The position numbers were made by a program, and so were the translations under genes. A stretch of DNA of 64,000 bases from an uncultured Thermoleophilia bacterium (lineage in GTDB: Bacteria; Actinomycetota; Thermoleophilia; UBA2241). The notes under the pieces are model-generated. The model did not search any database. It was not told where the DNA came from and saw only the letters and a program-made list of their open reading frames with translations. Shown here piece after piece: positions 6,671 to 60,354 of the stretch. How positions within the stretch are numbered: the first letter of the stretch is position 1; every line of letters starts with the position of its first letter. The stretch covers positions 302,329 through 366,328 of the forward strand of contig CAVXJO010000017.1 in NCBI GenBank assembly GCA_963762125.1. The letters run 5' to 3'.

Positions 6671-6737
6671 CGTTTGGGATAGTAGCAGATAGCCGCGCGT
6701 GTGTGACGAGCCTGAGCCCTGACGTAGACTGGGCCCC

Positions 6738-43147: not shown

Positions 43148-43190
43148 GAGTGGGTCCGGCCGATGAGCGGGGCGCGTCCTGGCGCGGCGC

Positions 43191-43943: not shown

Positions 43944-44029
43944 CGGTCATCCTCCCGTGGAAGGCCGCAGGGCGTCGCGGCGCTCGCTAGATGGTACCAG
44001 ACGCCTCGTCGGCGGTCGCGCTCCCCTGC

Positions 44030-44785
44030 TCACACGGCAGTGACGCCGCCGTCCGCGACCAGAGCCGTGCCGACGACGAACGAGCTGTCGTCGCCGGCGA
44101 GGAAGACTATCGCGCGGGCGATCTCATCGGCGCGCCCGAGGCGCCCGAGCAGAGTCGACTCCACGATCTCGCGACGCTCCGTCCCGGGGTCGCGAGCGGT
44201 GGCGATGAGGTCGCTCAGGAGCGGCGTGTCGACGGGTCCCGGACACACGGCGTTGACGCGGATGCCCTCGCGCGTGTGATCGGCGGCCATGGCGCGGGTG
44301 AGCTGGAGCACGCCGCCCTTGGTGGCCGCGTAGGCTGCGCTCTCGGGAGCACCGACCAGGGCCAGCTCAGAGGCGACGTTGACGATTACTCCGCTCCCCT
44401 GGTCGCGCATCACGCGCACAGCCTCGCGGCAGCAGCGATAGACGCCGCCGAGATTGACATCGACAAGACGCTGCCACTGGTCGGGGTCGGTGTCGGCGAT
44501 CGTGCACGACAGACCGACGCCCGCGGCGTTGACCAGCACGTCGATTCGCCCGTGGCGCTCGCGGGTGACCGCAAAGAGGCGCTCGACGTCGGCCTCGCGA
44601 CTCACGTCGCAGACCGCCGCGTGGGCGTCCGCGTCCGTGTGCGCGAGTGTCGTCGCCTCGGGTCGGCAATCGCGGACGTCGGCCAGGATCACCGCCGCCC
44701 CCTCCGCGGCGAAGAGACGCGCTGTGGCGAGGCCGATGCCGGAGGCCGCCCCCGTGACGATCGCCACACGGCCGGCGAGTCTCAC
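44030..44785 (-). CDS. Short-chain dehydrogenase/reductase
   Basis: TGAASGIG, NAAG, YAATK, VNAVCPG, DGG. Confidence 0.9.
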   Translation of the reverse strand: MRLAGRVAIVTGAASGIGLATARLFAAEGAAVILADVRDCRPEATTLAHTDADAHAAVCDVSREADVERLFAVTRERHGRIDVLVNAAGVGLSCTIADTDPDQWQRLVDVNLGGVYRCCREAVRVMRDQGSGVIVNVASELALVGAPESAAYAATKGGVLQLTRAMAADHTREGIRVNAVCPGPVDTPLLSDLIATARDPGTERREIVESTLLGRLGRADEIARAIVFLAGDDSSFVVGTALVADGGVTAV

Positions 44786-45870
44786 GGCCGCGTCCGGCCG
44801 CCGGCCGGCACCTGTTGCGTGATGCAGTGGATGCCGCCGCCACCGTAGCCGACGACGGGCGCGGGCACGCCCACGACCTCCCGTCCCGCGAGAATCTCGC
44901 CCAGGTGCTCGAGGGCCGCAAGGTCGTCGGCGTTTCCCGCCGTCGGCACGATCACGGCGCCGTTCGCCTGGTAGAAGTTGACGTACGTCTCGACGATGTC
45001 CCGGCCTCCCACGGACACCGGCGCGGCGCGCAGGTCGAGCTCGACGACCTCCAACGGCCTGCCGAGAGCGTCGGTCGTCTCGAGCCGTCGCCGGTTCTCC
45101 GTGAGGTTGGCGAAGTCGGGGTGTTCGCGGTCTCTGACCATGTGCAGCAGGACTCTCCCCGGACCGATGAAGGCCGCGACGCCGTCTACGTGTCCGTCGG
45201 TGTCAGGGTCGTCATCCAGGCCGAGGCCGGACACGAGCCAGATCACCTTCTGCACTCCGAGGTAGTCTTTGAGCCGCTGTTCGATGCCCCCTTTCGTCAG
45301 TCCCGGGTTGCGCGAGGGGTGCAAGAGACAGCTCTCGGTGGTGATCAGTGTGCCCTCACCGTCCACCGTGATCGATCCGCCTTCGAGGACCATCGGCGTC
45401 GCGTAGCGCCGCACGCCGAAGTGGTCGGCTATCCGCTCGCCGATCAGGGCGTCCTGATCGTAGGGCAGGTATCTCTCGCCCCAAGAGTTGAACGCGAAGT
45501 CGGCGATCGCGATCTCCCCGCCCCGGCCGCACACGAAGATCGGGCCGCTGTCGCGGATCCACGAATCGTCCAGGGGCAACTCGAGAACCTCGATGCCGTC
45601 CGACCCGCAGTAGCTCCGCGCCTCGGCGCCCTCACCGGGGCGTGCGAGCATGAGGACAGGTTCGAAGCGGGCGATTGCCCGGGCGACCGCAGCGTAAGTG
45701 TGCTGCGCGAGCATGTAGAACTCGCCCCAGTAGTCGCGCGTGCGCGTCGGCCAGGCGATCAGGCAGCGCTCGTGCGGGGCGAACTCGGCCGGCATGCGGA
45801 ATCCGTCCGAGCGGGGGGTCGTCGGGAGCGCTTCGTGTCCCTCGCAGGCGTCTGTTGAAGTGCCGACCAT
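44782..45870 (-). CDS. Agmatine deiminase family protein 1
   Basis: RMPAEF, DDSWIRDSGP, LEGG, TDGHVD, GGGGIHCITQQ; AAGGAG RBS before ATG 45870. Confidence 0.9.
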   Translation of the reverse strand: MVGTSTDACEGHEALPTTPRSDGFRMPAEFAPHERCLIAWPTRTRDYWGEFYMLAQHTYAAVARAIARFEPVLMLARPGEGAEARSYCGSDGIEVLELPLDDSWIRDSGPIFVCGRGGEIAIADFAFNSWGERYLPYDQDALIGERIADHFGVRRYATPMVLEGGSITVDGEGTLITTESCLLHPSRNPGLTKGGIEQRLKDYLGVQKVIWLVSGLGLDDDPDTDGHVDGVAAFIGPGRVLLHMVRDREHPDFANLTENRRRLETTDALGRPLEVVELDLRAAPVSVGGRDIVETYVNFYQANGAVIVPTAGNADDLAALEHLGEILAGREVVGVPAPVVGYGGGGIHCITQQVPAGGRTRP

Positions 45871-45901
45871 GCCCCTCTCCTTCGTGTAGAACGCCGTCGA
45901 C

Positions 45902-45950
45902 CTTGACCCGGCCACGACCATAATATCTAATTGGTCAAGCAGTCAAAAGT
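45902..45950. promoter_or_regulatory. AT-rich divergent promoter/operator region of the deiminase cluster
   Basis: CTTGACC (45902-45908) and GGTCAAG (45933-45939) form an inverted repeat around CATAATATCTAAT; an extra GTCAA follows. Confidence 0.55.
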
Positions 45951-46054
45951 TGAGGCTGGGCGCGCTCGGGGGCGCCAGGCCGGACCGGCGCGGCGCGACT
46001 GTCGGCAACGACGACGCACCCGGCGGCCGAGACTCGGGAGCAGAGGGGGACGAC

Positions 46055-47668
46055 ATGGGTACGTCACGCAAGCGTGTGAACCGCGGAGGCCGCGGTGCCA
46101 TTCTGGCGGCGGTGCTGATCGCGACGCTTCTGACTATCGGCGCGCTCTCCGCTGGCTGCGGCAGCTCGAGCACGACCGCTGCGACCACCGATGCCGGGAT
46201 CCTCAGGCTCGCCTCCGATCTGCAAGTGACCACCTGGGATCCGCGGACGGCCGCCAACAGCGAGCCGCTGTATCTCGCAAACGTCTACGAGCCGCTGCTC
46301 TACGCGAACCCGCCCGGCAGCGCCGAGCCGTTCACGCCCTGCCTCGCCACCTCGTGGGAAGTCTCGAAGGACGGCATGACCTGGACCTTCCACCTGCGCG
46401 AGGGCGTGACCTTCCACGACGGCACCCCGTTCAACGCCGCAGCCGTCAAGTACTCGATTGAGGCGACGCAGAAGATCGACCTCGGGGCCGCGTACATCTG
46501 GTACCCGGTGGAGAAGATCAAGGTCGTCGACGATTACACCGTCGAGATGCAGTGCAGCTACCCGGCAGCGCTCGACCGCGTGGCGACCTCGATGTATGGC
46601 GCCTGGATGTTCTCCCCCTCGACCAAGGGTAAGGATGCCGACTGGTGGAACCTGCCCAACGAGGTCGGCACCGGCCCGTACCAGCTGGTCTCCTACGCGC
46701 CGAACGAACAGGCGGTCTTCAAACGCTACCCGGACTACTGGGGCGGCTGGTCAGGGAGCAAGCCGGAGAAGGTCGTCATCAAGTACGTCGACGAGCCGGC
46801 GACCAAGCGCCAGATGCTGGAGGCCGGCGAGGTCGACTTCGCCGACGACCTCTCGCGCGACGCCATCCCCGCCCTGCAGAAGAACCAGGACCTGAAGATC
46901 ATCGATATCCCCAGCGTGCAGAACACCCTGGTGATGCTCAACACCCAGAGCAAGCCGCTAAGTGACGTCAAGGTCCGTCAGGCACTCAGTTACGCGGTCA
47001 ACTACCAGGACGTCTTGGCCGTGGCCACCAATGGCTTCGGCAAGATCTCCCGCGGGCCGCTCCCCAGCGGTCTCTACCCCCACGACCCGAACACGCCACA
47101 GTACAGCTACGACCCGGCCAGGGCCAAGCAGCTGCTGGCGGAGGCTGGCTTCCCGGGCGGTGGCTTCGCGGTGACGATGACCTACGCCTCGGACGACGCC
47201 TTCGGCTCGAAGCTGGCGCCGGTGCTCAAGGAGAACTTCGCCGACGTCGGCGTGACCCTCGACCTGCAGCCGCTGCTCTGGGAACAGAGCTGGGCGAAGG
47301 CCAAGGGGCCGGCCAAGGGTCGCCAGGACCTCTTCGAAGTCGTCTGGTGGCCAGGCTACCCGGATGGCTATGACACCCTCTATTCGCTGTTCCACTCGGA
47401 GAAGCAGCCGCTCTGGAACATGGCCTACTGGTCGAACCAGACCTATGACGACACCATCGACACGGCGTTCAGCGAGGAGCCCGTCGACCCAGCCAAGGCA
47501 CAGGAGCTCTACAACGAAGCCCAGAAGATGGTCGTCGACGAGGCTCTGGCGCTCTATCTGTTCGACCAGGACAGCCTCTATGGCACGTTGGCGACTCTTA
47601 AGCTCGAGGACACGGCGCTCAACCCCAACTACACGTCGGTCCTCTACTTCTACCGGACGTCGAAGTGA
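46055..47668 (+). CDS. ABC substrate-binding lipoprotein, family 5
   Basis: Lipobox LSAGC; TWDP, LATSW, FHLREGVTFHDGTPF, GTGPY, VRQAL. Confidence 0.9.
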   Translation: MGTSRKRVNRGGRGAILAAVLIATLLTIGALSAGCGSSSTTAATTDAGILRLASDLQVTTWDPRTAANSEPLYLANVYEPLLYANPPGSAEPFTPCLATSWEVSKDGMTWTFHLREGVTFHDGTPFNAAAVKYSIEATQKIDLGAAYIWYPVEKIKVVDDYTVEMQCSYPAALDRVATSMYGAWMFSPSTKGKDADWWNLPNEVGTGPYQLVSYAPNEQAVFKRYPDYWGGWSGSKPEKVVIKYVDEPATKRQMLEAGEVDFADDLSRDAIPALQKNQDLKIIDIPSVQNTLVMLNTQSKPLSDVKVRQALSYAVNYQDVLAVATNGFGKISRGPLPSGLYPHDPNTPQYSYDPARAKQLLAEAGFPGGGFAVTMTYASDDAFGSKLAPVLKENFADVGVTLDLQPLLWEQSWAKAKGPAKGRQDLFEVVWWPGYPDGYDTLYSLFHSEKQPLWNMAYWSNQTYDDTIDTAFSEEPVDPAKAQELYNEAQKMVVDEALALYLFDQDSLYGTLATLKLEDTALNPNYTSVLYFYRTSK

Positions 47669-47766
47669 CCGCCACGGCGGCAGCGGGCGGCGAGCCCTCC
47701 GGCCCGCCGCCCGCGGCCTCAGCGGCATTCGCAGGCCACTCGGCGGATCTGAGCCGGCGGTAGGGG

Positions 47767-48789
47767 TTGAGCGTACGCACGTATCTTCTGCGCCGCGTCG
47801 TGCTCATGGCGTTCGTCCTTCTCGGGGTCACCGTGGTCACGTTCTTGCTGGTGCGGGTGGTGCCCTCTGACGCGGCCGCGATCTACGCCGGGCCGCGCGC
47901 CCGACCAGAGCAGATCGAGGAGGCTCGCCATATCCTTGGTCTCGACCGTCCGCTGTACGTGCAGTACGGCATCTACGTTCGCGACCTGGTCCAGGGCGAC
48001 TGGGGTACGTCGTTGCGTACGCGGCGGCCGGTCCTGGGCGACATCCTCAACTTCTTGCCCTATTCCTTGCAGCTCGTCTTCCTGTCGCTGCTTCTCTCCA
48101 TCGTGGTCGGGGTGAGCCTCGGCGCACTCACGGCCCACAGGAGGGGCAGCTGGGTAGACAACTCAACCCGAGTGCTCGCCATCGGTGGCGTCTCCATGCC
48201 GTCGTTCGTCCTGGCCGTCCTGCTTCAGATCCTCTTCTTCCGAATACTCGGCCTGTTGCCGGTCTCCAACGAGCTCGACATCACCGTCGCGCAGGCGCAC
48301 CCGATCACTCAGATCACAGGTATGACCGCCGTCGACGCCCTCGTCACCGGCAACTTCGTGGCCTTCTTCAACGCCATGGAACACCTGGTGCTACCGGTCC
48401 TGACGCTGGCGGCGTTTTCCGCCGGAGTGATCACGCGGATGACGCGCTCCGCGATGCTCGAGTCGCTGGGTCAGGACTACATCCGCATGGCAAAGGCGAT
48501 GGGCGTGCCCACACGCACGATCGTGCTGCGCTACGCGCTCAAGAACGCGATGGCGCCCGTGCTCACGGTCATCGGCCTGGAGTTCGCCTACCTGCTCGTT
48601 GGCACATTCTTCGTCGAGCGGATCTTCGCGCTCCCGGGTCTCGGGACGTACGCGACCACGTCGATGCTCAGCCTCGACTATCCGGCGATCATGGGCATCA
48701 CCGTGCTGCTGGCGCTCGTCTATGTCTTCGTCAACCTGATCATCGACCTGGTCATCGCCAGGCTCGATCCGCGCGTGGTGCTGAGCTAG
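47767..48789 (+). CDS. DppB/OppB-type ABC permease
   Basis: LGLDRPL..QY, GDWGTS, QDYIRMAKAMG (EAA loop), LDPRV. Confidence 0.92.
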   Translation: MSVRTYLLRRVVLMAFVLLGVTVVTFLLVRVVPSDAAAIYAGPRARPEQIEEARHILGLDRPLYVQYGIYVRDLVQGDWGTSLRTRRPVLGDILNFLPYSLQLVFLSLLLSIVVGVSLGALTAHRRGSWVDNSTRVLAIGGVSMPSFVLAVLLQILFFRILGLLPVSNELDITVAQAHPITQITGMTAVDALVTGNFVAFFNAMEHLVLPVLTLAAFSAGVITRMTRSAMLESLGQDYIRMAKAMGVPTRTIVLRYALKNAMAPVLTVIGLEFAYLLVGTFFVERIFALPGLGTYATTSMLSLDYPAIMGITVLLALVYVFVNLIIDLVIARLDPRVVLS

Positions 48790-48798
48790 GGGACGCCG

Positions 48799-49716
48799 AT
48801 GGAAGCATCGACAGAGAGCGCGTCGATCGGCCTTCTCGCTGACTGGCGCGTGCGCCACTCTTCGACGCTCACGGAGACGCGTCACAACCTGCGCGTCTTT
48901 CTGCGCGACAAGCTGGCCGTCGTCGGTGTCGCCTGGATCCTTTTCATGGTGTTCGTCGCCTTCGGCGCCCCGTGGATCGCCCCGTACCCGGAGGAGGGCC
49001 GCGGCAGGTCGAACCTCAGCCAGCGTTTCGAGGCGCCCAGCTCCGCCCATCCCTTCGGCACCGACAACCTCGGCCGCGACGTGCTCTCCCGCGTCATCTT
49101 CGGGGCGCGGATCCCCCTCATGATCTCGGCCCTCGTCGCGGTCGCGGTGCTGATCATCGGCCCCGTGCTGGGTGGCCTGGCCGGGTACTACGGCGGCCTG
49201 CTGGACGAAGTGATCATGCGCATCACCGACATCTTCCTGGCGTTTCCGGCGCTGATCCTGGCGATGGCGTTCGTCGCGATCCTCGGGCCGAGCCTTCAGA
49301 ACCTTGCGTTCGCGATCATCATCACCTGGTGGCCCTGGTACACGCGCCTGGTGCGCGGCCAAGCCATCTCGTTGCGCCAGCGCCCCTACGTAGAAGCGGC
49401 CAAGACGATGGGCGTTTCCAACCGCACCATCGTACTGCGTCACATCCTGCCCAACGCCTTCGGCCCGGTCATCGTGGGGATCACGCTCGACCTCGGTACG
49501 GTGATCCTCGAGGTCGCCGGGCTCTCCTTCCTCGGCCTGGGCGTCAGGCCGCCGACGCCGGAGTGGGGGCTCATGGTCTCCGAGGGGGTGGAGTACGTCC
49601 TCGAGCAGTGGTGGATCAGCATCTTCCCAGGTATCGCCATCTTTCTGCTGGTGCTCGCGTTCAACGTCGTCGGTGACGGCCTGCGCGATGTCCTCGACCC
49701 GCGGATGAAGAGGTAG
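48799..49716 (+). CDS. DppC/OppC-type ABC permease
   Basis: HPFGTDNLGRDV, YVEAAKTMG, HILPN, LSFLGLG, GDGLRDVLDP. Confidence 0.92.
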   Translation: MEASTESASIGLLADWRVRHSSTLTETRHNLRVFLRDKLAVVGVAWILFMVFVAFGAPWIAPYPEEGRGRSNLSQRFEAPSSAHPFGTDNLGRDVLSRVIFGARIPLMISALVAVAVLIIGPVLGGLAGYYGGLLDEVIMRITDIFLAFPALILAMAFVAILGPSLQNLAFAIIITWWPWYTRLVRGQAISLRQRPYVEAAKTMGVSNRTIVLRHILPNAFGPVIVGITLDLGTVILEVAGLSFLGLGVRPPTPEWGLMVSEGVEYVLEQWWISIFPGIAIFLLVLAFNVVGDGLRDVLDPRMKR

Positions 49717-49721
49717 CGGCG

Positions 49722-50723
49722 ATGCAGGAGCTGCTCCAGATCCGCGACCTCAAAGTGCAGTTCAACAGTCTGCGCGGGACGGTGAAGGCGCTCGACGGCG
49801 TCAATCTCACGGTGCGCGAGCGAGAGATCATCGGTCTTGTGGGCGAATCGGGCTGCGGCAAGACCATCACCGGCTTGTCGGTCCTGCAGCTGCTGCCCCG
49901 ACCGCAGACGGAGTACACGAGCGGCGAGATCCTGTTCCGCGGCGACGATCTGCTCAAGAAGAGCGAGACCGAGATGCGGCGCATCCGCGGCGGGCGGGTC
50001 TCGATGGTCTTCCAGGACCCGCTGGCCTCGCTCAACCCCGTGTTCACGATCGGCGCGCAGATCGAGCGGGTCGTACATCTGCACCGCGACGTCTCCGGCA
50101 AGGAGGCGGCCGAGGCCGCTCGCGCGGCGCTGGTCTCGGTCGGCCTGCCGGGAAGCAAAGACATTCTGGGGAGCTACCCCCACCAGCTCAGCGGCGGCAT
50201 GCGTCAGCGGGCCTGCATGGCCATGGCGCTGTCGTGCGACTCCCCGCTGCTGATCGCCGACGAGCCGACCACGGCCCTCGATGTGACGATCCAGGCGCAG
50301 ATCCTGCGGCTGCTTCTCGAGTTGCGCGAGCGTCTGGGCATCGCCCAGATCCTTATCACTCACAACGTCGGTGTCGCCGCCCAGACCTGCGACCGGGTGG
50401 CGGTGATGTACGCCGGCTCCGTGGTCGAGCAAGGCCTGACGAAGGAGGTCCTGAAACACTCCAGACATCCCTACACCATCGCGCTCTACGAGTGCCTTCC
50501 CCAAGGCAAGAAGGCGGGAGAGCTCCATACCATCCCCGGCTCCGTGCCCGACCTCATCGACCCGCCGAGCGGGTGCCGCTTTCACCCGCGCTGCGAGCAC
50601 GCCATGGAGGTCTGCGCGACCGTCAAGCCGGAACCGACGCACCTGACAGCCGAGCACTGGGCGGCCTGCCATTGGGTGGCCGAGCAGGAGCGCTCGGCGC
50701 GCGCGGCCGGAGGCGTGTCGTGA
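49722..50723 (+). CDS. DppD-type ABC ATPase
   Basis: GESGCGKT, YPHQLSGGMRQR, ADEPTTALD, HPYT, GCRFHPRC. Confidence 0.93.
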   Translation: MQELLQIRDLKVQFNSLRGTVKALDGVNLTVREREIIGLVGESGCGKTITGLSVLQLLPRPQTEYTSGEILFRGDDLLKKSETEMRRIRGGRVSMVFQDPLASLNPVFTIGAQIERVVHLHRDVSGKEAAEAARAALVSVGLPGSKDILGSYPHQLSGGMRQRACMAMALSCDSPLLIADEPTTALDVTIQAQILRLLLELRERLGIAQILITHNVGVAAQTCDRVAVMYAGSVVEQGLTKEVLKHSRHPYTIALYECLPQGKKAGELHTIPGSVPDLIDPPSGCRFHPRCEHAMEVCATVKPEPTHLTAEHWAACHWVAEQERSARAAGGVS

Positions 50724-51890
50724 CCGCGCTCCTGGCCGTCGAGGACCTCACCGTCCACTTCAAGATCCGCCGCGGCCTCAGCAGGAAGTCGACCGACGTC
50801 GTTCACGCCGCCGACGGCGTCAGCCTGAGCATCGAATCCGGTCAGACGATGGCCCTGGTCGGCGAATCGGGGTCCGGCAAGACGACCGTCGCCCGGGCGA
50901 TCCTGCAGCTCGCGGAGCCGACCGGGGGACGCATCGTCTTCCAGGGGCTGGACATCGGCTCGCTCAAACGCGCCGAGAAACGGGCCGCGATGAGCGATGC
51001 CCAGGTCGTCTTCCAGGACCCCTACTCGTCCCTGAGCCCGCGCTTGACGGTCCACGACATCATCGCCGAGCCGCTACGGGCTCAGCGGCGACTGAGCGGG
51101 AGCGGAGCTCAACGAGCGGATCCTGGGCCTGCTCGAGATGGTCGGGCTGGGCACCCAGCACCTCTGGCGCCGCCCGCACGAGTTCTCCGGCGGGCAGTGT
51201 CAGCGGATCGCCATTGCCCGGGCGCTGGCTCTTGACCCCAAGCTCGTCGTGCTGGACGAACCGACCTCCGCCCTCGATGTGTCGGTCCAGGCTCGCATCC
51301 TCGTCCTGCTCGAAGAGCTCCAGACCCGGCTCGGCCTTACCTACCTGTTCATCGCTCATGACCTGGCCGTCGTCGAGTCGGTCTCCGACAGGGTCGCGGT
51401 GATGTATCTCGGCCACATCATGGAGACGGGGCCGACCGACGCAGTCCTACACGATGCTCGGCACCCCTACACCCGCGCCCTGCTGGCCAGCGTGCCTTCG
51501 CCGGACCCCGGTCTCCGCAGCGAGCTTGGGCTCATCTCCGGGGAGGTCCCCGACGCCGTGAGACCGCCGTCGGGGTGCCGCTTCCATCCCCGCTGCCCGT
51601 TCGTCATGGACATCTGTCCGGCCGAGCGACCCCCTCTACGCGACATCGGCGGCGGGAGACGCGTGGCCTGCCACCTGGCCGACGACTTCGAGTTCCCAGC
51701 GGTGGCGCGCCCGACGGGCGGCGAGCGGACGTCGGCTCGGCCGTCGGGCGACGTCGACGGACCGGCCGACCGACGCGGCGTCACGGACGCCGAGGCGCCG
51801 ACGCTCGGTCGCACGATGAAGGCAGCCCTGTTCGGGACCCGCAGAAGAGCCAGGCTGGTGCCCGGCGCGATGGTCGACAAGCGGCTGTGA
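50720..51890 (+). CDS. DppF-type ABC ATPase, frameshift near 51102
   Basis: GESGSGKTT, VFQDPYSSL in one frame; PHEFSGGQCQR, LDEPTSALD, GCRFHPRC in the next. Confidence 0.88.
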
Positions 51891-52681
51891 TGGAGATGGG
51901 GTTCGGGCATCCAGACGAAAGCGAGGGTCGGGCGAACGGGCGGCTCGACGACACCGTCGCCGTGGTGACCGGCGGTGCGCAGGGAATCGGCGAGTGCATC
52001 GCGGCCCGGTTCGCTCGCGAAGGCGCGCGCGTGCTTGTCGGTGACATCCAAGAGACGAAGGCGGGGCGCGTGGCGTCCGCCTTGCGCGACGAGGGGCTCG
52101 ACGTCGAGTCCGCGCCGCTCGACATCCGGGAGCCCGATTCCGCGGTCTCCCTCATGGCCCGCGCCGTGGAACGCTGGGGACGCATCGACGTGCTCGTCAA
52201 CAACGCCGGCCTCGACGCGCCGCCCGGGCCGGCGTGGGAGATCGGCGAGGAGGAGTGGCGCGACGTCATCGAGACCGATCTCTCCGGCCCGTGGTGGTGC
52301 ACCCGGGCGGTGCTCCCTCACATGATGGCTGGCCGCCACGGTCGCGTCATCTTCATCAGCTCGGGGAGCGCGCGGATCGGCGCCGCCGAGATCTCGGTCG
52401 CCTACAACGCCGCGAAGGCGGGGCTGGTCGGCCTGACGGTAGGCCTGGCCGTTCACCTCGAGCCGTACGGGATCCTCGTCAACGCCGTCGCGCCCGGCCC
52501 GACGGGCACGGGGATGCCGATGACGCCCGAGGAGAGGACCACGCACGAGCGCGACTTCCCTCTCGGGATCGTCGGTCCGGAGCCGGTGGCGCAGGCCTGT
52601 CTCTACCTGGCCGCGGAGAGCGGCGACTGGGTGAGCGGCAGCGTGCTCAACGTCAGCGGCGGCTGGTGGAGGGGGTTCTGA
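51890..52681 (+). CDS. Short-chain dehydrogenase/reductase
   Basis: TGGAQGIG, NNAG, YNAAK, VNAVAPG. Confidence 0.88.
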   Translation: MEMGFGHPDESEGRANGRLDDTVAVVTGGAQGIGECIAARFAREGARVLVGDIQETKAGRVASALRDEGLDVESAPLDIREPDSAVSLMARAVERWGRIDVLVNNAGLDAPPGPAWEIGEEEWRDVIETDLSGPWWCTRAVLPHMMAGRHGRVIFISSGSARIGAAEISVAYNAAKAGLVGLTVGLAVHLEPYGILVNAVAPGPTGTGMPMTPEERTTHERDFPLGIVGPEPVAQACLYLAAESGDWVSGSVLNVSGGWWRGF

Positions 52682-53634
52682 TGTCCGACCGCCGGGCGCC
52701 GACGACGGAAGCGCGGATCGCGTGGCCAGGGAACGCGGCGGCGGCCGTGGTCCTTACGTTCGACGTCGACGCCGAGAGCGGGGTGCTGTGGGAGTTTCCC
52801 GAGACCGTGCGCCGTCTCGGCATCATGAGCCATCAGGCGTACGGACCGCGCGTCGGCTTGCCGCGCCTGCTTCGCGTCCTCGCACGGCATCGGGCGCGCG
52901 CCACGTTCTTTGTGCCCGGCTTCACCGCCGAGGTGCATCCGGATGCCGTGCGCAGCATCATCGCCGCCGGGCATGAGGTGGGTCACCACGGCTACCTTCA
53001 CGAGATGGTCACGGAGTTGTCCCCGGCCGACGAGGCGGCGGTCCTCGAGCGGGGCAGCGACGTACTGGAGCGCCTGACCGGAATCAGGCCGCGTGGCTGG
53101 CGGGCGCCGATGTGGGAGATGAACTACAGCACGCCCGCTCTTCTCGCGGCGCACGGCTTCGCCTACGACTCGAGCCTCATGGATGCCGACCTGCCGTACC
53201 GCATGCGCACCGGCCCGACGCCCGACGCCGCCACGCTGGTCGAACTGCCGCCCCACTGGAGCCTCGACGACGGCGAGCAGTATGCCTGGCTGCCGGGGAT
53301 CTGGGACACGGCCGTGATCGAAGGTCCTGACAAGTTGCTGCGGATGTGGGAAATGGAGTTCGACGCGACCCTCGCCGAAGGGGGATGCCTCGTGCTCACG
53401 ATGCATCCATTCCTCTCCGGCCGGCCGGGGCGAGCGGCGGCGTTCGAGAGCCTTCTCGAGCGGATCGTGGGCACCCCCCGAATCTGGATGGCGACGGCGT
53501 CTGAGGTCGCGGACCACATGGACGCCCTGGCGTCAGAGGCGGTCTACCACCAGCCGCCGCCCGTCGATCCATCCCAACTCGCACGCAGGGTCCGGCCTGC
53601 GCACGACCGTATGGACACCGAGGAGGAGACATGA
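52681..53634 (+). CDS. CE4 hydrolase (HpPgdA/PuuE-like polysaccharide deacetylase family)
   Basis: TFDVDAES, YGPRVGLPR, ATFFVPG, HEVGHHGYLHE, YDSSLM, TMHPFLSGRP. Confidence 0.87.
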   Translation: MSDRRAPTTEARIAWPGNAAAAVVLTFDVDAESGVLWEFPETVRRLGIMSHQAYGPRVGLPRLLRVLARHRARATFFVPGFTAEVHPDAVRSIIAAGHEVGHHGYLHEMVTELSPADEAAVLERGSDVLERLTGIRPRGWRAPMWEMNYSTPALLAAHGFAYDSSLMDADLPYRMRTGPTPDAATLVELPPHWSLDDGEQYAWLPGIWDTAVIEGPDKLLRMWEMEFDATLAEGGCLVLTMHPFLSGRPGRAAAFESLLERIVGTPRIWMATASEVADHMDALASEAVYHQPPPVDPSQLARRVRPAHDRMDTEEET

Positions 53635-54710
53635 ACGAGACGGCCTCGCCAGGCAGCGACGGACATGACCGGGAGGGCGTGCCGCCGTGGGCCTCCGGCT
53701 ACCGCATGCCGGCGGAGTGGTGGCCGCACGAGCGCTGTCTCATCGCCTGGCCGACCGCCTCGCGTGCATACTGGGGTGAGCTCTACCTGCTCGCTCAGGC
53801 GACGCATGCGGCGGTGGCGCGCGCCGTGGCGCGCTTCGAGCCGGTGCTGGTCATCGCCAGGCCTGGGGAGGGTGGCAACGCCAGGAGCTACTGCGGCTCT
53901 GACATCGAGGTCATCGAACTTCCCATCGACGACTCCTGGATCCGGGACAACGGGCCGTACTTCCTGCTCGACCCGGATGGTCAGCGGGCGGTCGCCGACT
54001 TCGCCTTCAACTCGTGGGGGGAGAAGTACTTCCCGTATGACAAGGACGCTCAGGTCACCCGACTGCTCTGCGAGGAGTTCGGCTGGGAACGGTTGCCCGC
54101 GCCGATGGTCCTCGAGGGCGGAGCCTTCACCGTCGACGGAGAAGGCACACTCGTCACGACCGAGAGCTGCCTGCTGCACCCGACGCGCAATCCGCACCTC
54201 TCGCGCGAGCGGCAGGAGGAGATCCTGCGCGACTACCTCGGCGCCGAGAAGGTCGTGTGGCTCAAGGCCGGGCGTACAGAGGCGACCGACACGGACGGCC
54301 ACGTCGACGGCGTCTGCCACTTCGTCGCGCCGGGCCGCGTCATCCTTCACATGGTCCGCGAGCCCAGCCACGTCGACTTCGAGAACTTCCGCGAGAACCG
54401 CAGGGTGCTCGACGAGACGACCGATGCGCGGGGGCGGTCGCTGGAGGTTCTCGAGATGGACCGGCGCACCACGACCGATATCGGCGGCAAGCACCTCACA
54501 GTGACGTACATCAACTCCTACCAGGCCAACGGCGGGCTTGTCGTGCCCACGGCGGGGAGCGACTACGACGCGCACGCACTGGAGCGCCTCCGCGAGGTCT
54601 TCCCCGAGAGGGAGATCATCGGCGTGCCGACCCCGGTTCTGGCCTACGGTGGCGGGGGCATCCACTGCATCACCCAACAGGTACCGGCCTCGACTGGAGG
54701 CGCGCGGTGA
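53631..54710 (+). CDS. Agmatine deiminase family protein 2
   Basis: RMPAEW, DDSWIRDNGP, LEGG, TDGHVD, GGGGIHCITQQ. Confidence 0.9.
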   Translation: MNETASPGSDGHDREGVPPWASGYRMPAEWWPHERCLIAWPTASRAYWGELYLLAQATHAAVARAVARFEPVLVIARPGEGGNARSYCGSDIEVIELPIDDSWIRDNGPYFLLDPDGQRAVADFAFNSWGEKYFPYDKDAQVTRLLCEEFGWERLPAPMVLEGGAFTVDGEGTLVTTESCLLHPTRNPHLSRERQEEILRDYLGAEKVVWLKAGRTEATDTDGHVDGVCHFVAPGRVILHMVREPSHVDFENFRENRRVLDETTDARGRSLEVLEMDRRTTTDIGGKHLTVTYINSYQANGGLVVPTAGSDYDAHALERLREVFPEREIIGVPTPVLAYGGGGIHCITQQVPASTGGAR

Positions 54711-55348
54711 CTCGGACGGCCGGACGCGCGACACCAGCTCCGCCCGAGGGGCGGGCGAGGAGGGACTTCCCCCCGACGGCGCGCAAGCTCCTCATCGCCG
54801 CGCGGCGCGTCCTGGTGCGCAACGGATACCCTGGCCTGACGATGCAGGCGATCGAGCGCGAGTCGGGCATCAATCGGGCCCTGATCCACTACTACTTCGG
54901 GAGCAAGGCCGGACTCCTGGAAGCCCTCGTCGACACGCTGTTCGAGGACCCGGCCTTCGGTTACAGCGATGCCGTGGCCCGGGCGCCCGCCGGTCCGGCG
55001 CGCAGGGAGGCACTGCTCGAGTGGCTCGCTCGCATCTCCGCGAACCGGCGCTCGGGGCGCCTCCTCTACGAGTTGCTGCCGCACATCGTGCGCTCCAGTA
55101 CGTTGAGGAACCGGGCCGCCGAACTCTATGGAGCCTATCGGCAGTTCGACGGCGAGGTCCTGGCGCCGCGCGCAAGCCCGGATCTGCGTGAGGACCTCGG
55201 AGCATTGAGCGTCGCGATCGTCGACGGTCTGAGCCTCCAGACGGCCATCGACCCCCGCGGCTTCGCCCGCGACCGTGCGTTCACGCTCTGGACCCAGGTC
55301 CTCACGCACTATCTGCACGACACGATCGACGACAAGGAGGCGGAGTGA
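54707..55348 (+). CDS. TetR-family transcriptional regulator
   Basis: GTGA overlap; GLTMQAIERESGINRALIHYYFGSK HTH. Confidence 0.88.
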   Translation: MTRTAGRATPAPPEGRARRDFPPTARKLLIAARRVLVRNGYPGLTMQAIERESGINRALIHYYFGSKAGLLEALVDTLFEDPAFGYSDAVARAPAGPARREALLEWLARISANRRSGRLLYELLPHIVRSSTLRNRAAELYGAYRQFDGEVLAPRASPDLREDLGALSVAIVDGLSLQTAIDPRGFARDRAFTLWTQVLTHYLHDTIDDKEAE

Positions 55349-56385
55349 TGAACCAGGCCGCCGGCGACTCGCCCGGGCAGCTGAGCGGCTACGCGAAGTT
55401 GCGCGGACGCCACTACCTCACCGATCAGGACTACAGTCGCGAGGAGCTGCTCGAATTACTGCAACTCGCGGCACGGCTCAAGGCCCTCTCCGTCCGCAAG
55501 ACGCTGACTCCCTTCCTGCCCGGCAAGACGCTGGCGATGATCTTTGAGCATCCGTCCACGCGCACGCGAGTCAGCTTCGAGGCCGGCATGACGGAGCTGG
55601 GTGGACACGCGCAGTACCTGCGCCCCGGGGAGATCCACCTGCCGGGACGTGAGAGCATCAAGGATACCGTCATCGTGCTCTCGCGCCTGTGCCACGCGAT
55701 CATGGCGCGCACGGCGTTCCATACCTCTCTCGTCGAGATGGCTCGCTGGGCCACCGTACCGGTCGTCAACGGCCTCACCGACGACTACGACCATCCGATC
55801 CAGTCACTCACCGATGCGCTCACCATCTGGGAGACCGCGGGCCGCTTCGAGGGTGTCAAGCTGGCGTTTCTCGGCAAAATCAGCGACGCGATGGCGAGCT
55901 CGGTCGCGCTCACCTGCAGCAAGCTCGGCGTCGACGTCGTGTTGGCCGGACCCGCCGAGCACCAGATGGCGCCCGAGATGCAGGCGCTGGTGCGAGCCAA
56001 CTGCGAGCAGAGCGGCGCTTCGCTGACCCTGACCGACGACCCAGAGGAGGCGGTCGCCGACGCCGACTTCATCTACACGGTGCTCTGGTGGTGGCTCGAG
56101 GAGGGAGAAGCCAGGGAGGCGTTGCGGCGCACCTATCAGCCGTATCAGGTGAACGAGGAGCTGTGGGCGAAGACCAAGCCCGGAGCCCGGTTCATGGACT
56201 GCCTGCCGGCCGTGCGCAACGAGGAGGCCACCGACGCCATCATGGACGGCCCCATGGCGCTGTGCTTCGACCAGGCCGAGAACCGCAAGCATCTGCAGAA
56301 AGCGATTCTGCTCGCCCTGATCGGGATCGACGATCTGCCGGCCGACCCCGACCTCCGGGAAGTGGGCCGGGCTCTGCTCTCGTAG
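55345..56385 (+). CDS. Ornithine/putrescine carbamoyltransferase-family enzyme with atypical amine-binding motifs
   Basis: STRTRVSFE, HPIQ, DQAENR; YTVLWWW and DCLP replace the usual motifs. Confidence 0.85.
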   Translation: MMNQAAGDSPGQLSGYAKLRGRHYLTDQDYSREELLELLQLAARLKALSVRKTLTPFLPGKTLAMIFEHPSTRTRVSFEAGMTELGGHAQYLRPGEIHLPGRESIKDTVIVLSRLCHAIMARTAFHTSLVEMARWATVPVVNGLTDDYDHPIQSLTDALTIWETAGRFEGVKLAFLGKISDAMASSVALTCSKLGVDVVLAGPAEHQMAPEMQALVRANCEQSGASLTLTDDPEEAVADADFIYTVLWWWLEEGEAREALRRTYQPYQVNEELWAKTKPGARFMDCLPAVRNEEATDAIMDGPMALCFDQAENRKHLQKAILLALIGIDDLPADPDLREVGRALLS

Positions 56386-56451
56386 GTTCGCGGTACGACT
56401 ACGGCGCCACTCGCTTCAGGGCGATTCCGCCAACGACCAGGAGACATAGCG

Positions 56452-57546
56452 ATGAACGACGGCAATCAGGCACCGGCAGTCGCAACAACACCGCACGCGG
56501 ACGGGCTGCGTCTGCCGGCGCGGTTCGGCGACCATGCGCGCACCCTACTCTCGTGGCCCTGCCGACACGAGGTCTTCGGGCCACTCGAAGAGGCCGCCAA
56601 GGAGGAGTGGGCAGAGGTCGCCCGTGCGATCGCGCGGTTTGAACCGGTCACGGTGGTGGCTCGTCCCGAGGACGCAGACGACGCGCAGGCAAGGTGTGGC
56701 GATGGAGTCGACGTGCTCGCCCTCCCGCTCGACGACTCCTGGATCCGCGACAACGGCCCTATCTTCGTGCGCGACGAAGACCAGGCGGTAGCGCTGGTCG
56801 GATTCGGCTTTGACGGCTGGAACCGGCAGTACGAGCCCTTCGATGCGGACGCGCTGGTACCAGGGCGGATCGCGGAGACTTGGGCGGTGCGCTCTTACCA
56901 GGCGCCGTTCGTCCTCGAGGGCGGCGCCTTCAACACCGACGGCGAGGGTACACTGCTGACCACCGAACAGTGCCTCCTGCACAACCGCAACCTTGGCATG
57001 GCGAGGCGCGACTACGAGCAGGCGCTGCACGAGTGGCTTGGTATCGAGAAGGTGATCTGGCTGCCGTTCGGGTTGGTCGAGGACTCCGGCCCGCTCTCGA
57101 CGGCCGGGCACGTCGATGACGTCGCCCAGTTCGTGGGTCCGGGTGTCGTCCTCGCCCAAACGGCGCCGGCGGACAATCCGAATCACGCCCGGCTGCAGGA
57201 GAACCTCGAGCTCCTCAAGGAATCGACCGACGCCGCCGGCCGCAGACTAACCGTCGTCGAGATGGACCTGCTGCCGTACGTGAAGGGCGTCGGCGCCGGG
57301 CTCGACCTGCGGATCCCCGGCGCCACCAAGCTCATGCCGGCGCCGTACGTGAACCTCGTCTTCGTGAATGGCGGCGTGTTGCTGCCGCGACTGGGCGTTG
57401 AGGATGAGGACGCCGCCTACGCGCGCATCGGCGAGTTGCTTCCCGGACGCGAGGTCGTCGGTCTTCCGGTCGAGATGTCCGCATTCGGCGGCGGCGGGCT
57501 GGGCTGTATCACCCAGCAGGTGCCTGCCGGCCAATTTCTCAGCTGA
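56452..57546 (+). CDS. Agmatine deiminase family protein 3 (divergent)
   Basis: DDSWIRDNGP, LEGG, TAGHVDD, GGGGLGCITQQ. Confidence 0.87.
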   Translation: MNDGNQAPAVATTPHADGLRLPARFGDHARTLLSWPCRHEVFGPLEEAAKEEWAEVARAIARFEPVTVVARPEDADDAQARCGDGVDVLALPLDDSWIRDNGPIFVRDEDQAVALVGFGFDGWNRQYEPFDADALVPGRIAETWAVRSYQAPFVLEGGAFNTDGEGTLLTTEQCLLHNRNLGMARRDYEQALHEWLGIEKVIWLPFGLVEDSGPLSTAGHVDDVAQFVGPGVVLAQTAPADNPNHARLQENLELLKESTDAAGRRLTVVEMDLLPYVKGVGAGLDLRIPGATKLMPAPYVNLVFVNGGVLLPRLGVEDEDAAYARIGELLPGREVVGLPVEMSAFGGGGLGCITQQVPAGQFLS

Positions 57547-57591
57547 GGCGACGAGGGCGAGGGCAAGAAGACCGATCGAGCAGGAGGCACG

Positions 57592-57873
57592 GTGACCAGG
57601 CTCCTCGACAGCACGCCCCGCGAGGACGGCTATCGCATGCCGGGCGAGTACGAGCCGCACGCGGGGACCTGGCTGCTTTGGCCGCAGCGCCCCGACGTAT
57701 GGCGGCTCGGCGGCAAGCCGGCGCAACGCGCGTTCGTTGCGCTCGCCACGGCGATCGCCCGATTCGAGTTCCCCGCCAGGGAGGTCGTTCCGTTGTCCAG
57801 CCGCGAGATCATCCTTGCGGGAGGCAACGTGCACTGCGTCACGCAACAGCAGCCCCTCGGGGAGAGGAGATGA
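57592..57873 (+). pseudogene. aguA: Agmatine deiminase (canonical AguA type) with a large in-frame internal deletion
   Basis: N-terminus ([27 protein letters not shown]) joined directly to the C-terminus ([19 protein letters not shown]); 93 aa against ~360 aa for the neighbouring paralogues. Confidence 0.8.
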
Positions 57874-57874
57874 C

Positions 57875-58774
57875 ATGGCTCGGACCCTGACGATCGCGGC
57901 CACACAGATGGCCTGCTCGTGGGAGATCGGCGAGAACATCGACCGGGCCGAGGGCCTGGTGCGCGAGGCGGCGGCACTCGGCGCCCAGGTGGTGCTCCTG
58001 CAGGAGCTGTTCGAGACCCCGTACTTCTGCATCGACCAGGACGCGCGTCACTTCGAGCTGGCGCGACCCGTCGACGGTCATCCGACCGTCACGCGTTTCC
58101 AGCGCCTCGCCGCCGAACTCGGCGTCGTCCTTCCCGTGAGCGTGTTCGAGCGCGCCGGGCAGGCCTTCTTCAATTCCGTGGCGATGATCGACGCCGACGG
58201 GACAGCTCTCGGCGTCTATCGCAAGACGCACATCCCCGACGCGGCCGGCTACCAGGAGAAGTACTACTTCTCGCCGGGCGACACCGGTTTCAGAGTGTGG
58301 CGCACGAGACACGGCGTGTTCGGCGTGGGGATCTGCTGGGACCAGTGGTTCCCGGAGAGCGCCCGCAGCATGGCACTCATGGGGGCGGAGGTGCTGCTCT
58401 ATCCCACGGCCATCGGCTCCGACCCGCCCGCCCCGGAGGAAGACTCGAGTGGTGCCTGGCGACGTGTCCAGCAGGGGCACGCGGCCGCGAATCTCATGCC
58501 GCTCCTGGCCTCCAACCGGATCGGCGTCGAGGAGGGAGCCTCCGCGAGCATGCGCTTCTACGGGTCTTCGTTCGTCGCCGATCACACAGGCGCGATCGTG
58601 GCGCAAGCATCGCAGGACCGGCAGGAGGTCATCACCGCCACGTTCGACCTGGACGACGTGCGCAGCTATCGCGAGCGCTGGACGATGTTCAGGGACCGGC
58701 GCCCGGAGCATTATGGGCGGCTCCTGACGCTGGACGGAGAGACGGACGGCCACATGCCGAGCGGTGGGAGGTGA
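57875..58774 (+). CDS. aguB: N-carbamoylputrescine amidase
   Basis: QELFETPYFC, YRKTHIPD..GYQEKYYFSPGDTGF, ICWDQWFPE, YPTAIGS, GHAAAN, SNRIG, FRDRRPE. Confidence 0.92.
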   Translation: MARTLTIAATQMACSWEIGENIDRAEGLVREAAALGAQVVLLQELFETPYFCIDQDARHFELARPVDGHPTVTRFQRLAAELGVVLPVSVFERAGQAFFNSVAMIDADGTALGVYRKTHIPDAAGYQEKYYFSPGDTGFRVWRTRHGVFGVGICWDQWFPESARSMALMGAEVLLYPTAIGSDPPAPEEDSSGAWRRVQQGHAAANLMPLLASNRIGVEEGASASMRFYGSSFVADHTGAIVAQASQDRQEVITATFDLDDVRSYRERWTMFRDRRPEHYGRLLTLDGETDGHMPSGGR

Positions 58775-58778
58775 CTGC

Positions 58779-59195
58779 ATGACCGGCGACGCGGTCGGCG
58801 AGGAGCAGGTGAAGAGCGCCGCGAACGCACTCATCTCGGCGTTCGGCGCGCATCACACCGAGGAGTACTTCCGGGCGTTCAGCCCCGACGCCACCTTCCT
58901 GTTCTACAGCTCTCCACAGCGGTTCGAGTCCAAGGCGGCCTACCGCGCGGAGTGGGAGCGCTGGGAGCGAGAGGATGGCTTTCGTATCTTGGCGTGCACC
59001 TCGACGGGCCAGAAGGTGCAAGTGGTGGGCGACGCCGCCATCTTCACCCACGACCTGGTCACGCGCGTCGGTCTCGATGCCGGCGAGGAGACCGTCCATG
59101 AGCGGGAGACCATCGTCTTCGCGCGTCGGCGCGGGGGTTCATGGCTCGCGATACACGAACACTTGTCTCCCGACCCCGGTCAGAGTGCGGGGTGA
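58779..59195 (+). CDS. SnoaL/NTF2-like small protein
   Basis: YF.AFSPDATF, ERETIVF, W..IHEHLS. Confidence 0.78.
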   Translation: MTGDAVGEEQVKSAANALISAFGAHHTEEYFRAFSPDATFLFYSSPQRFESKAAYRAEWERWEREDGFRILACTSTGQKVQVVGDAAIFTHDLVTRVGLDAGEETVHERETIVFARRRGGSWLAIHEHLSPDPGQSAG

Positions 59196-59229
59196 GCGCG
59201 CCGGGTAGTGCCGGCCGCCGCGCTTCGCG

Positions 59230-60264: not shown

Positions 60265-60318
60265 GACTTCCCTGTCGGCGGCTTCCGGCGAGTGCTGGCC
60301 CGCTCCGGATTGGGCGCG

Positions 60319-60354
60319 AGTATGGGAGCCCCACTCTTATCTGTCAAATAAGAG
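60319..60354 (-). promoter_or_regulatory. Sigma-70-type promoter of tauE with a palindromic operator over the -35
   Basis: TTGACA (60342-60347), 17 nt, CATACT (60319-60324) on the minus strand; CTCTTAT-N7-ATAAGAG at 60334-60354. Confidence 0.75.

Follow-up and report, generated by a model that had tools for sequence, protein, structure and literature searches.

A gene cluster at positions 44030-59195 of a 64,000-nucleotide window (the whole stretch of DNA analysed, from an uncultured Thermoleophilia bacterium) holds three intact genes of the agmatine deiminase family and the remnant of a fourth, together with genes for a carbamoyltransferase, an amidase and an importer. We think it somewhat probable that this cluster serves soil Thermoleophilia, as a modular locus under TetR control, in the uptake and breakdown of guanidino compounds that are not, or not only, free agmatine. 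The deiminase genes are referred to as PAD1, PAD2, PAD3 and PAD4 (the remnant). The other genes encode a transcarbamylase resembling putrescine transcarbamylase (here TCase), the N-carbamoylputrescine amidase AguB, a family-5 ATP-binding cassette (ABC) importer, two short-chain dehydrogenases (SDR1 and SDR2), a CE4 hydrolase, a TetR regulator and a small SnoaL-like protein. The source assembly comprises 3.7 Mb in 17 contigs and is 92% complete; the window is part of its contig C17. Genes were called by third-position GC content, the DNA being ∼69% GC, and were then named with Pfam and NCBIfam.

Deiminases and transcarbamylase beside a canonical agmatine operon

To place the deiminases we used the NCBIfam equivalog model for AguA (TIGR03380, curated cut-off 381.8 bits), and an AguA is called canonical here on the basis of this cut-off together with its Protein Data Bank (PDB) match. 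PAD1 (328.3 bits), PAD2 (322.4 bits) and PAD3 (273.7 bits) all scored below the cut-off, whereas three controls scored above it: the AguA encoded on contig C9 of the same genome (555.4 bits), the intact PAD4 of the related genome G006 (486.3 bits) and an AguB-adjacent enzyme of Heliobacterium (401.1 bits). Identity to the C9 AguA was 47% for PAD1, 42-43% for PAD2, 43% for PAD3 and 64% for PAD4, while PAD2 was 62% identical to PAD1 and 45% identical to PAD3. A tree was built from 99 rows, of which 93 were PAD proteins from loci retrieved with PAD3 and six were references (the three window PADs, the C9 gene, a gene on contig C11 and the G006 PAD4). In this tree the PAD4 orthologs and the C9 AguA formed one clade (support 100), with PAD1, PAD2 and PAD3 outside it. 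The PAD3 clade comprised 17 rows (support 100), solely Thermoleophilia and Actinomycetes records of metagenome-assembled genomes (MAGs), and PAD1 and PAD2 fell with the C11 paralog in a clade of 10 rows (support 100). By score and by tree, PAD1-3 thus appear to be distinct from canonical AguA and to belong to separate, lineage-specific clades.

The catalytic Asp/His/Asp/Cys residues are kept in all PADs, where they lie in the motifs DDSWIRD, GHVD(D/G) and (H/G)CITQQ of PAD1-3; the catalytic set in MtAIH is Cys366, His224, Asp226 and Asp94 (PMC6447857). Throughout the PAD3 clade the catalytic Cys is preceded by Gly and not by His (GC for HC). In this clade, moreover, four residues are inserted before T-x-G-H, FNxWG is replaced by FDGW, and the gate loop has an intermediate length. 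A Ser of PAD3 aligns with the agmatine-amine-binding acid of plant agmatine iminohydrolase (AIH), an equivalence that is uncertain owing to the insertion. 

Contig C9 carries a complete canonical operon, consisting of a PTC-like (putrescine transcarbamylase-like) TCase, an APC antiporter in one 494-codon frame, a carbamate kinase scoring 407 bits (cut-off 358) and the AguA (474 bits to the Enterococcus faecalis agmatine deiminase structure 2JER). Agmatine therefore already has a dedicated pathway in this genome. Two carbamate kinases scored above the cut-off, on C9 and C5, and none is encoded on the window's contig; the absence of a carbamate kinase remarked upon in the first-pass annotation consequently holds for the window and does not extend to the genome. 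Besides the PAD4 remnant the genome contains five intact PAD_porph genes, and it has five arginase-family genes. No homolog of deoxyhypusine synthase (DHS/SpeY) was found in the 92%-complete genome, and a biosynthetic homospermidine or diagmatine route was dropped as the role of the locus for this reason.

As a side observation, the fifth PAD_porph gene lies at 49700-50860 of contig C11 in this genome (G000; 5701-6861 of locus L004), belongs to the PAD1/PAD2 clade and scores 315 bits on the AguA model. It is located between an FMN-reductase-like gene and a gene for an FrhB/4Fe-4S protein, near a gene for an MttB-family methyltransferase that scores 464 bits on the trimethylamine model, below its cut-off.

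The C9 operon bears on one alternative, namely plain agmatine catabolism with redundant isozymes. On this account agmatine would be the substrate of every deiminase and N-carbamoylputrescine that of TCase and AguB alike, and the locus would be a fusion of the two known agmatine routes, with the importer, SDR and CE4 genes functionally unrelated to it. The position of PAD1-3 below the AguA cut-off and in separate clades argues against such redundancy, although the nearest solved structure of each PAD is an agmatine deiminase. AguB fits it, as the sole gene in the genome above the cut-off of its equivalog model (448.2 bits against 410.25 for TIGR03381), and so does the PAD4-AguB pair of sister species; yet these same species keep canonical AguA, PAD2 and PAD3 in one operon, all under purifying selection. 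Start/stop overlaps furthermore tie the importer, SDR2, CE4, PAD2, TetR and TCase genes together, and a CE4-SDR pair is linked to ureohydrolases elsewhere (see below). We consider redundant agmatine catabolism unlikely, and the TCase adds evidence on both sides.

PTCs have been described by a signature of STRT without a Lys two residues upstream, a changed 230-loop and a C-terminal extension of ∼20 residues (PMC3282769). The window TCase satisfies this signature, which speaks for agmatine redundancy, as do the database labels of its homologs (putrescine or ornithine carbamoyltransferase). Specifically, it reads FEHPSTRT where the ornithine transcarbamylase (OTC) of the genome has FMKTSTRT. In its 230-loop YTVLWWWLEE the residues W-W-L-E align with Y-G-L-Y of E. 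faecalis and fit the pattern (Y/W)(G/W)(V/L/I)X, the corresponding OTC stretch being DTFTSMGQ. Both the window and the C9 TCase run ∼20 residues past the genome's OTCs, although the signature motif for helix 13, a weak one, is not clearly matched. Two further positions set the window enzyme apart and count against redundancy. Asp227 of the E. faecalis PTC, located in the 230-loop, shapes the putrescine site (PMC4581275); the window TCase has Val where this residue aligns, whereas the C9 TCase keeps Asp. Likewise, HCLP is described as invariant, and HxLP as family-wide, in transcarbamylases (PMC4581275), and the window TCase carries DCLP where the C9 enzyme keeps His. 

In the family, 80 genomes (counting that of the window) contain 8 orthologs with at least 81% identity, and all 8 have the DCLP change. 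Among the best 120 matches from a collection of 5.8 billion proteins, it occurred in 14, all at least 81% identical to the query, while His was kept in 106. A tier of homologs at 63-69% identity keeps HCLP and has Val at the putrescine-site position (one Ile), and two further TCase loci have Ser at the position equivalent to Asp227. For 20 loci of the 63-69% tier, inspected with 1.5-kb flanks, a PAD was seen only beside L109, which is of the cluster type; a TetR-like gene was present in 13 and an APC-permease-like gene in 5. The other 19 loci (L110-L128) represent a widespread Thermoleophilia tier, 63-67% identical to the window TCase, with HCLP, Val or Ile and no deiminase within 1.5 kb. They have a TetR-like gene in 12 cases and an APC-permease-like gene in 5, which suggests import of a ready-made ureide.

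On the PTC model (TIGR04384, cut-off 500 bits) the window TCase scored 352 bits. Since the C9 TCase fails this model too (318 bits) despite its place in a canonical operon, the cut-off may be narrow for this phylum. The generic OTC model (TIGR00658) was passed with 314 bits against a cut-off of 281, with both ornithine-binding features of OTC, the Lys before STRT and the DxxxSMG loop, missing from the protein.

The OTC score is one argument for a second alternative, the use of arginine peptides. A Dpp-type importer would then take up di- or oligopeptides with Arg, such as beta-Asp-Arg from cyanophycin, the PADs would deiminate Arg, either free or within peptides, and the TCase would cleave a citrulline-type ureide. 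The importer is indeed of the peptide type (family 5) and the Pfam family of the PADs is named after peptidyl-arginine deiminase, but the PADs match the Porphyromonas PAD with only ∼30 bits, against 180-220 bits for agmatine deiminases. The Lys and SMG loop that the TCase does not have are the elements described as binding the carboxylate and alpha-amino group of ornithine (PMC3282769), and AguB is an N-carbamoylputrescine amidase equivalog. We regard this alternative as improbable. A possible cyanophycin link came from 3 of 14 PAD3-type genes that stand alone (L033, L035 and L045), which carry a member of family F6 one or two genes away; the member scanned, in L033, is a cyanophycin synthetase. 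In L035 and L045 an alpha/beta hydrolase family lies between the PAD3-type gene and F6, the L035 member being of the BD-FAE type. The link was rejected as too weak, since it concerns three solo loci that are all from closely related genomes, one scanned F6 member and pairs with other genes in between.

Conservation, modularity and selection

The genes from the substrate-binding protein (SBP) of the importer to SnoaL amount to 13 plus-strand genes with seven overlapping junctions and a largest gap of 98 nt (Table 1), and they read as one operon opposite PAD1-SDR1. The TetR gene overlaps each of its neighbours, PAD2 and TCase, by 4 nt, and on the other arm SDR1 overlaps the PAD1 stop by 4 nt. 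The gene content listed in the first-pass annotation was recovered by Pfam and NCBIfam: three intact deiminases with PAD_porph matches and a deleted fourth, the transcarbamylase, AguB, two SDRs, CE4, SnoaL and TetR, in two arms that are indeed divergent. Its importer proved to be of family 5 (SBP_bac_5) and to consist of the SBP, two permeases and two ATPases at 46055-51890, with the amendment that the second ATPase is split over two frames.

Table 1. Features of the locus at 44030-59195, with coordinates in the window.
Feature	Coordinates	Strand	Evidence
SDR1, short-chain dehydrogenase, 251 aa	44030-44785	-	Pfam adh_short_C2 2e-66
PAD1, non-canonical agmatine-deiminase-family enzyme	44782-45870	-	PAD_porph 6e-106
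Divergent intergenic region with AT-rich centre, 184 bp	45871-46054	.	consensus scan
SBP of family 5 (Dpp/Opp/Nik type)	46055-47668	+	SBP_bac_5 2.5e-92
ABC permease, DppB-like	47767-48789	+	BPD_transp_1
ABC permease, DppC-like	48799-49716	+	BPD_transp_1 with OppC_N for the permease pair
ABC ATPase, DppD-like	49722-50723	+	ABC_tran with oligo_HPY
ABC ATPase, DppF-like, two frames	50720-51890	+	domain split over reading frames 50234-51235 and 51138-51890
SDR2, short-chain dehydrogenase	51890-52681	+	adh_short 7e-53
CE4 / NodB-fold hydrolase, PuuE/3RXZ subgroup	52681-53634	+	Polysacc_deac_1
PAD2, non-canonical agmatine-deiminase-family enzyme	53631-54710	+	PAD_porph 2.5e-105
TetR regulator, BetI-type C-terminal domain	54707-55348	+	TetR_N, TetR_C_6
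TCase, putrescine-transcarbamylase-like carbamoyltransferase	55345-56385	+	NCBIfam models, motifs
PAD3, most divergent deiminase	56452-57546	+	PAD_porph 2e-89
PAD4 remnant, 93 aa, canonical AguA type	57592-57873	+	profile positions 1-46 and 293-321 only
AguB, CN_hydrolase, N-carbamoylputrescine amidase equivalog	57875-58774	+	TIGR03381 448 bits
SnoaL/NTF2-like small protein	58764-59195	+	SnoaL_3 3e-10

The PAD1 reading frame extends to 45921, and its likely start is an ATG at 45870 behind GGAGAGG. In the divergent region two back-to-back promoter-like sites were found (45897-45924 on the plus strand and 45946-45917 on the minus strand), which are consensus matches only, and this region contains no inverted repeats that could serve as a TetR operator. 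A 10-nt inverted repeat is located just past the SnoaL gene, at 59195-59224. An Rfam scan of 42000-61000 with E-values up to 0.1 gave zero matches, the guanidine riboswitch included.

G006 contains the whole locus, its proteins being 80-97% identical to those of the window; PAD4 is intact there and PAD1 is absent. G021 has a partial version (TetR-TCase-PAD3-PAD4-AguB-SnoaL). Of the 79 loci fetched with PAD3, 22 were assigned to the PAD3 clade by identity (at least 64%). Seven of these have TCase upstream and AguB downstream, six of the seven with ABC genes as well, and one other locus combines AguB with PAD1 and has neither TCase nor importer. Among 80 genomes of the family, eight encode a TCase of at least 81% identity, and PAD3 adjoins it in six of the eight short loci. 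A core of importer, TetR, TCase, PAD3 and AguB recurs in about eight Thermoleophilia species and is the stable part of the locus, with PAD1, SDR2-CE4-PAD2, PAD4 and SnoaL as its variable parts; by tblastn, SnoaL was present in 3 of 8 cluster-type loci (L022, L023 and L024). The first-pass annotation, which had inferred a pathway for a guanidine other than agmatine, named two outcomes that would speak against it, grouping of the three deiminases with canonical AguA and a neighbourhood not conserved elsewhere. PAD1-3 do not group with canonical AguA, and the search for conserved synteny of deiminase, transcarbamylase and importer that it proposed recovered the neighbourhood in several species.

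In sister species the intact PAD4 lies directly before AguB; the two make up a standard aguA-aguB pair, and TetR-TCase-PAD3 forms the second module. That a transcarbamylase occurs together with AguB, initially taken as anomalous, is real and is partly explained by this modularity. Because PAD4 was seen only in three species and as the window remnant, AguB directly follows PAD3 in most species.

Some further arrangements were noted around related deiminases. Of the 14 solo PAD3 loci, four have a TetR-like gene of one family directly upstream (the L028 member was confirmed with Pfam), as does the outlying L044, and two have an APC permease of one family downstream (the L026 member was confirmed). 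In cultured Kribbella, Nocardioides and Kineosporia (L090, L092, L083 and L065), a PAD of the wider PAD1/PAD2 group adjoins further PAD_porph paralogs. According to Pfam, the Kribbella loci L090 and L092 also contain urease-like subunits (alpha, and gamma fused to beta), an ABC importer of the Pot type and a BetI-type TetR, with two long (∼470-530 aa), divergent PAD_porph paralogs in the neighbourhood. Several Thermoplasmata loci have a PAD beside a Dpp-type ABC operon. Multi-PAD loci and links of PADs to importers are therefore not unique to the present lineage. Finally, in two other Actinomycetota MAG records (L046 and L047) one strand carries the genes for a TauE-family permease and for a PAD from the wider PAD1/PAD2 group as well as a 138-aa open reading frame (ORF); in L047 the PAD is preceded by another ORF, of 331 aa. 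This arrangement hints at a TauE-PAD link.

Comparison with G006 gave ratios of nonsynonymous to synonymous substitution (dN/dS) of 0.08-0.33 across all 17 genes or gene halves, for instance 0.16 for SDR1, 0.18 for the SBP, ∼0.10 for the permeases, 0.17 for PAD2, 0.15 for TCase and 0.11 for PAD3. The genes of the locus are under purifying selection. It was also seen that the synonymous distance to G006 is lower in TCase (0.10) and PAD3 (0.25) than in most neighbours (∼0.3-0.5); the segment 55345-57546 may mark a recent exchange between species.

Two genes of the locus are damaged. The DppF-like ATPase has one extra base near 51101 relative to its ortholog (a 1-nt gap against L022) and is a single frame in G006; the split goes back to a recent break or else to an error of assembly. 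In PAD4, 59 N-terminal and 34 C-terminal residues remain, fused in frame by a deletion of 810 bp relative to the L022 ortholog, with the junction near 57768 and a 1-nt overlap at the junction. In public contigs (four runs) over 50900-58000, no near-identical contig spans ∼51101 or ∼57768. These lesions, together with the coming and going of PAD1, PAD2, CE4, SDR2, PAD4 and SnoaL between species, are what one might expect of a decaying accessory island that is being lost from the genome and whose pathway does not work any more. Such decay is, in our estimation, highly improbable: the PAD4 deletion is in frame and the canonical function lost with it is duplicated on C9, all other genes are intact, the selection values given above include the two DppF halves (0.19 and 0.08), and the single-base frameshift in DppF could be an assembly error.

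A dehydrogenase-CE4 pair and the proposed breakdown route

The CE4 protein matches PDB entry 3RXZ (depositor name 'polysaccharide deacetylase') with 274 bits, the PuuE allantoinase being more distant. Of 401 Actinomycetota genomes, 14 (that of the window among them) encode homologs at E-values of at most 1e-50. We inspected the neighbours at 17 loci from the 13 other genomes (1.5-kb flanks): one or two SDR genes were adjacent in 6 of the 17 loci, and an arginase-family ureohydrolase in 4. In the wider regions of G508 (L150) and G656 (L149) an APC permease, two SDRs, a ureohydrolase and CE4 occur together, the ureohydrolases and APC permeases being confirmed with Pfam, and in G508 a PucR-type regulator stands beside this cluster. 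As a separate observation, these clusters from two distant Actinomycetota genomes look like an uncharacterised guanidine pathway. A non-homologous, putatively guanidine-removing enzyme thus sits in the place of PAD2 beside SDR-CE4 elsewhere. This replacement is the best indirect evidence that SDR2, CE4 and PAD2 may act on one decorated guanidine.

In the uptake-and-breakdown route that we favour, the family-5 importer would bring the substrate into the cell, where PAD1, PAD2 and PAD3 would each turn a guanidino group into a ureido group and ammonia. The PTC-like TCase is predicted to cleave the ureido group by phosphorolysis, and the carbamoyl phosphate so formed could be turned into ATP by the carbamate kinases whose genes lie outside the locus; as an alternative to the TCase, AguB would hydrolyse the ureido group. 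One substrate would have a hydroxyl and also an amide or acyl feature for SDR2 and CE4, encoded upstream of PAD2, to process. PAD4, the canonical AguA that in sister species forms with AguB an ordinary pair leading from agmatine to putrescine, has been deleted here, where the separate canonical operon would handle agmatine. Each enzymatic step and the nature of the substrate are predictions from sequence. Our leading guess at the substrate is a bis-guanidine, or an N-substituted or hydroxylated derivative of agmatine. A bis-guanidine would account for the keeping of both carbamoyl-removing enzymes with PAD3, and would likewise account for the loss, in the TCase, of the residue that holds a free distal amine.

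A more specific version, which we put forward only tentatively, is an energy-yielding deiminase pathway for an imported bis-guanidino polyamine of the arcaine or diagmatine type, or for an agmatine that is hydroxylated or acylated. It would draw on two new AguA subfamilies, one being the PAD3 clade and the other that of PAD1/PAD2, and the TCase would found a new transcarbamylase subfamily. Its changes would fit a ureido substrate without a free distal amine, such as N,N'-dicarbamoylputrescine, and AguB would finish on the mono-carbamoyl product. Precedents for such substrates exist within the enzyme family: an AguA homolog without detectable agmatine activity and strictly specific for a bis-guanidine was characterised in 2026, and probable N1-aminopropylagmatine iminohydrolases were proposed in the same report (PMC13625781).

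Several points weigh against a non-agmatine role of the locus. Canonical AIH is itself described as promiscuous, the Pseudomonas aeruginosa enzyme also taking the bis-guanidine G44G (PMC13625781), and the substrates, ligands and activities assigned to the locus proteins are all predicted ones. The end product could still be putrescine from agmatine, because AguB scores above the cut-off of its equivalog model and the transcarbamylases nearest to the TCase are those for putrescine. As many as 14 of the 22 PAD3-clade genes stand in unrelated contexts, outside any such cluster, and the tree, sampled by similarity to PAD3, holds no experimentally characterised enzyme. The residue-level arguments depend on alignment, which in the case of PAD3 crosses the 4-residue insertion, and canonical-type PAD4 also does not have an acid exactly at the agmatine-amine position. 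PAD1 and PAD2 share their short gate loop with enzymes of Firmicutes that are encoded next to AguB and score above the AguA cut-off; this loop is therefore not diagnostic, and gate-loop length was rejected as a specificity marker. The second ATPase of the importer is frameshifted in the present assembly. The SBP is below every curated equivalog cut-off in its 10 matches (best GsiB, 183 bits against 594), and its PDB matches are generic (DppA, GsiB, NikA and opine binders, at most 188 bits); inference of a ligand from solved relatives was therefore dropped, and only the assignment to the family-5 fold holds. SDR1, finally, is co-directional with ComA (43191-43943) and a histidine phosphatase (42548-43147), and has an ortholog in G006, a genome without PAD1; it may go with these neighbours and not with the deiminase cluster.

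Guanidino compounds are nitrogen-rich and common in soil, and few breakdown routes are known beyond those for arginine, agmatine and guanidino acids. In this locus an abundant uncultured soil lineage multiplies and recombines deiminases, PTC-like transcarbamylases and importers. Through the substrates of three enzyme clades, the PAD3 and PAD1/PAD2 deiminases and the DCLP transcarbamylases, the agmatine deiminase pathway could come to include new compounds, and the SDR-CE4 pair, which recurs beside either type of enzyme, deiminase or ureohydrolase, is a pointer to one more class of guanidine substrates. If the TCase does act on a new ureide, this would be a new way of making ATP from carbamoyl phosphate.

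Genomic surroundings and comparison with known systems

The locus is flanked by genes for the phosphosulfolactate synthase ComA and the histidine phosphatase (42548-43943, minus strand) on one side and by a TauE/SafE permease gene (59230-60264, minus strand) on the other. These flanks also border a smaller version of the locus in L043, as if the deiminase genes had been inserted between sulfonate-related genes. A taurocyamine or sulfonate substrate, considered because of these flanks, was dropped: the best match to sulfoacetaldehyde acetyltransferase in the genome scored 303 bits against 676, and in G006 and L043 the ComA and TauE flanks recur simply as conserved genomic surroundings. Elsewhere in the window, at 18755-20571 (plus strand), two genes overlap by 4 nt: the first encodes an arginase-family ureohydrolase of 316 aa, and the one directly after it a second CN-hydrolase, of 289 aa, which with 97 bits stays below the cut-off of the AguB model. 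A further guanidine or ureide pair of the window could be encoded here. The region of ∼20600-42200 encodes polysaccharide biosynthesis (Wzz-like protein, flippase, MBOAT acyltransferase and PMT_2 glycosyltransferase) and appears unrelated to the locus.

No description of a catabolic locus of such build was met in full-text searches of the literature, in which the matches listed were in part judged from titles and abstract openings. Neofunctionalised AguA homologs are already known, in the account consulted only from biosynthetic SpeY clusters (PMC13625781). The claim that the locus does not match the agmatine pathway is accordingly best narrowed: it stands in so far as PAD1-3 lie outside canonical AguA, and it loses some of its force through the modularity of the locus, the kinases encoded elsewhere and the published action of AguA homologs on other guanidines.

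One of the closest known systems is the agmatine deiminase (AgDI) operon of E. faecalis and Streptococcus mutans, composed of AguA, putrescine transcarbamylase, carbamate kinase and an antiporter, of which a true copy is present on C9. The window locus shares with it the deiminase-then-transcarbamylase chemistry and the PTC signature, and an energy yield via carbamate kinase is plausible here too. It differs in its three non-canonical deiminases, in having no local carbamate kinase, in a family-5 ABC importer in place of the APC antiporter, in the additional AguB, SDR2, CE4 and SnoaL, and in a TCase with DCLP and Val. The E. faecalis PTC (PDB 4A8H and 3TXX, among others) itself resembles the window TCase at ∼247 bits, with STRT free of the OTC Lys, an aromatic 230-loop for SMG and a C-terminal extension; Asp227 and HCLP are replaced by Val and DCLP in the window enzyme, which scores below the curated cut-off.

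The hydrolytic aguA-aguB route, as in aguBA of P. aeruginosa, is likewise recognisable in the AguB equivalog, in the order PAD4-AguB of sister species and in the presence of a TetR gene, the P. aeruginosa aguBA having the TetR-family repressor AguR. Here, in contrast, the canonical aguA partner is deleted, and AguB follows the divergent PAD3 in most species. Likeness to the PAD of Porphyromonas gingivalis (PPAD) is confined to the Pfam family (PF04371) and the Cys/His/Asp catalytic chemistry; the ∼30-bit match covers part of the protein, and Pfam scans of the window showed no secretion or Ig-like domains.

The diagmatine (G44G) iminohydrolase of Rhizorhabdus wittichii and the probable N1-aminopropylagmatine iminohydrolases belong to the same enzyme family as the window PADs and have moved from agmatine to polyamines that are larger or carry two guanidino groups, with an amidase of the AguB type acting next (PMC13625781). 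By their description they differ in being biosynthetic and in travelling with arginine decarboxylase and SpeY, the latter homologous to deoxyhypusine synthase (PMC13625781). The window locus, because it includes an importer and a regulator, points instead to catabolism.

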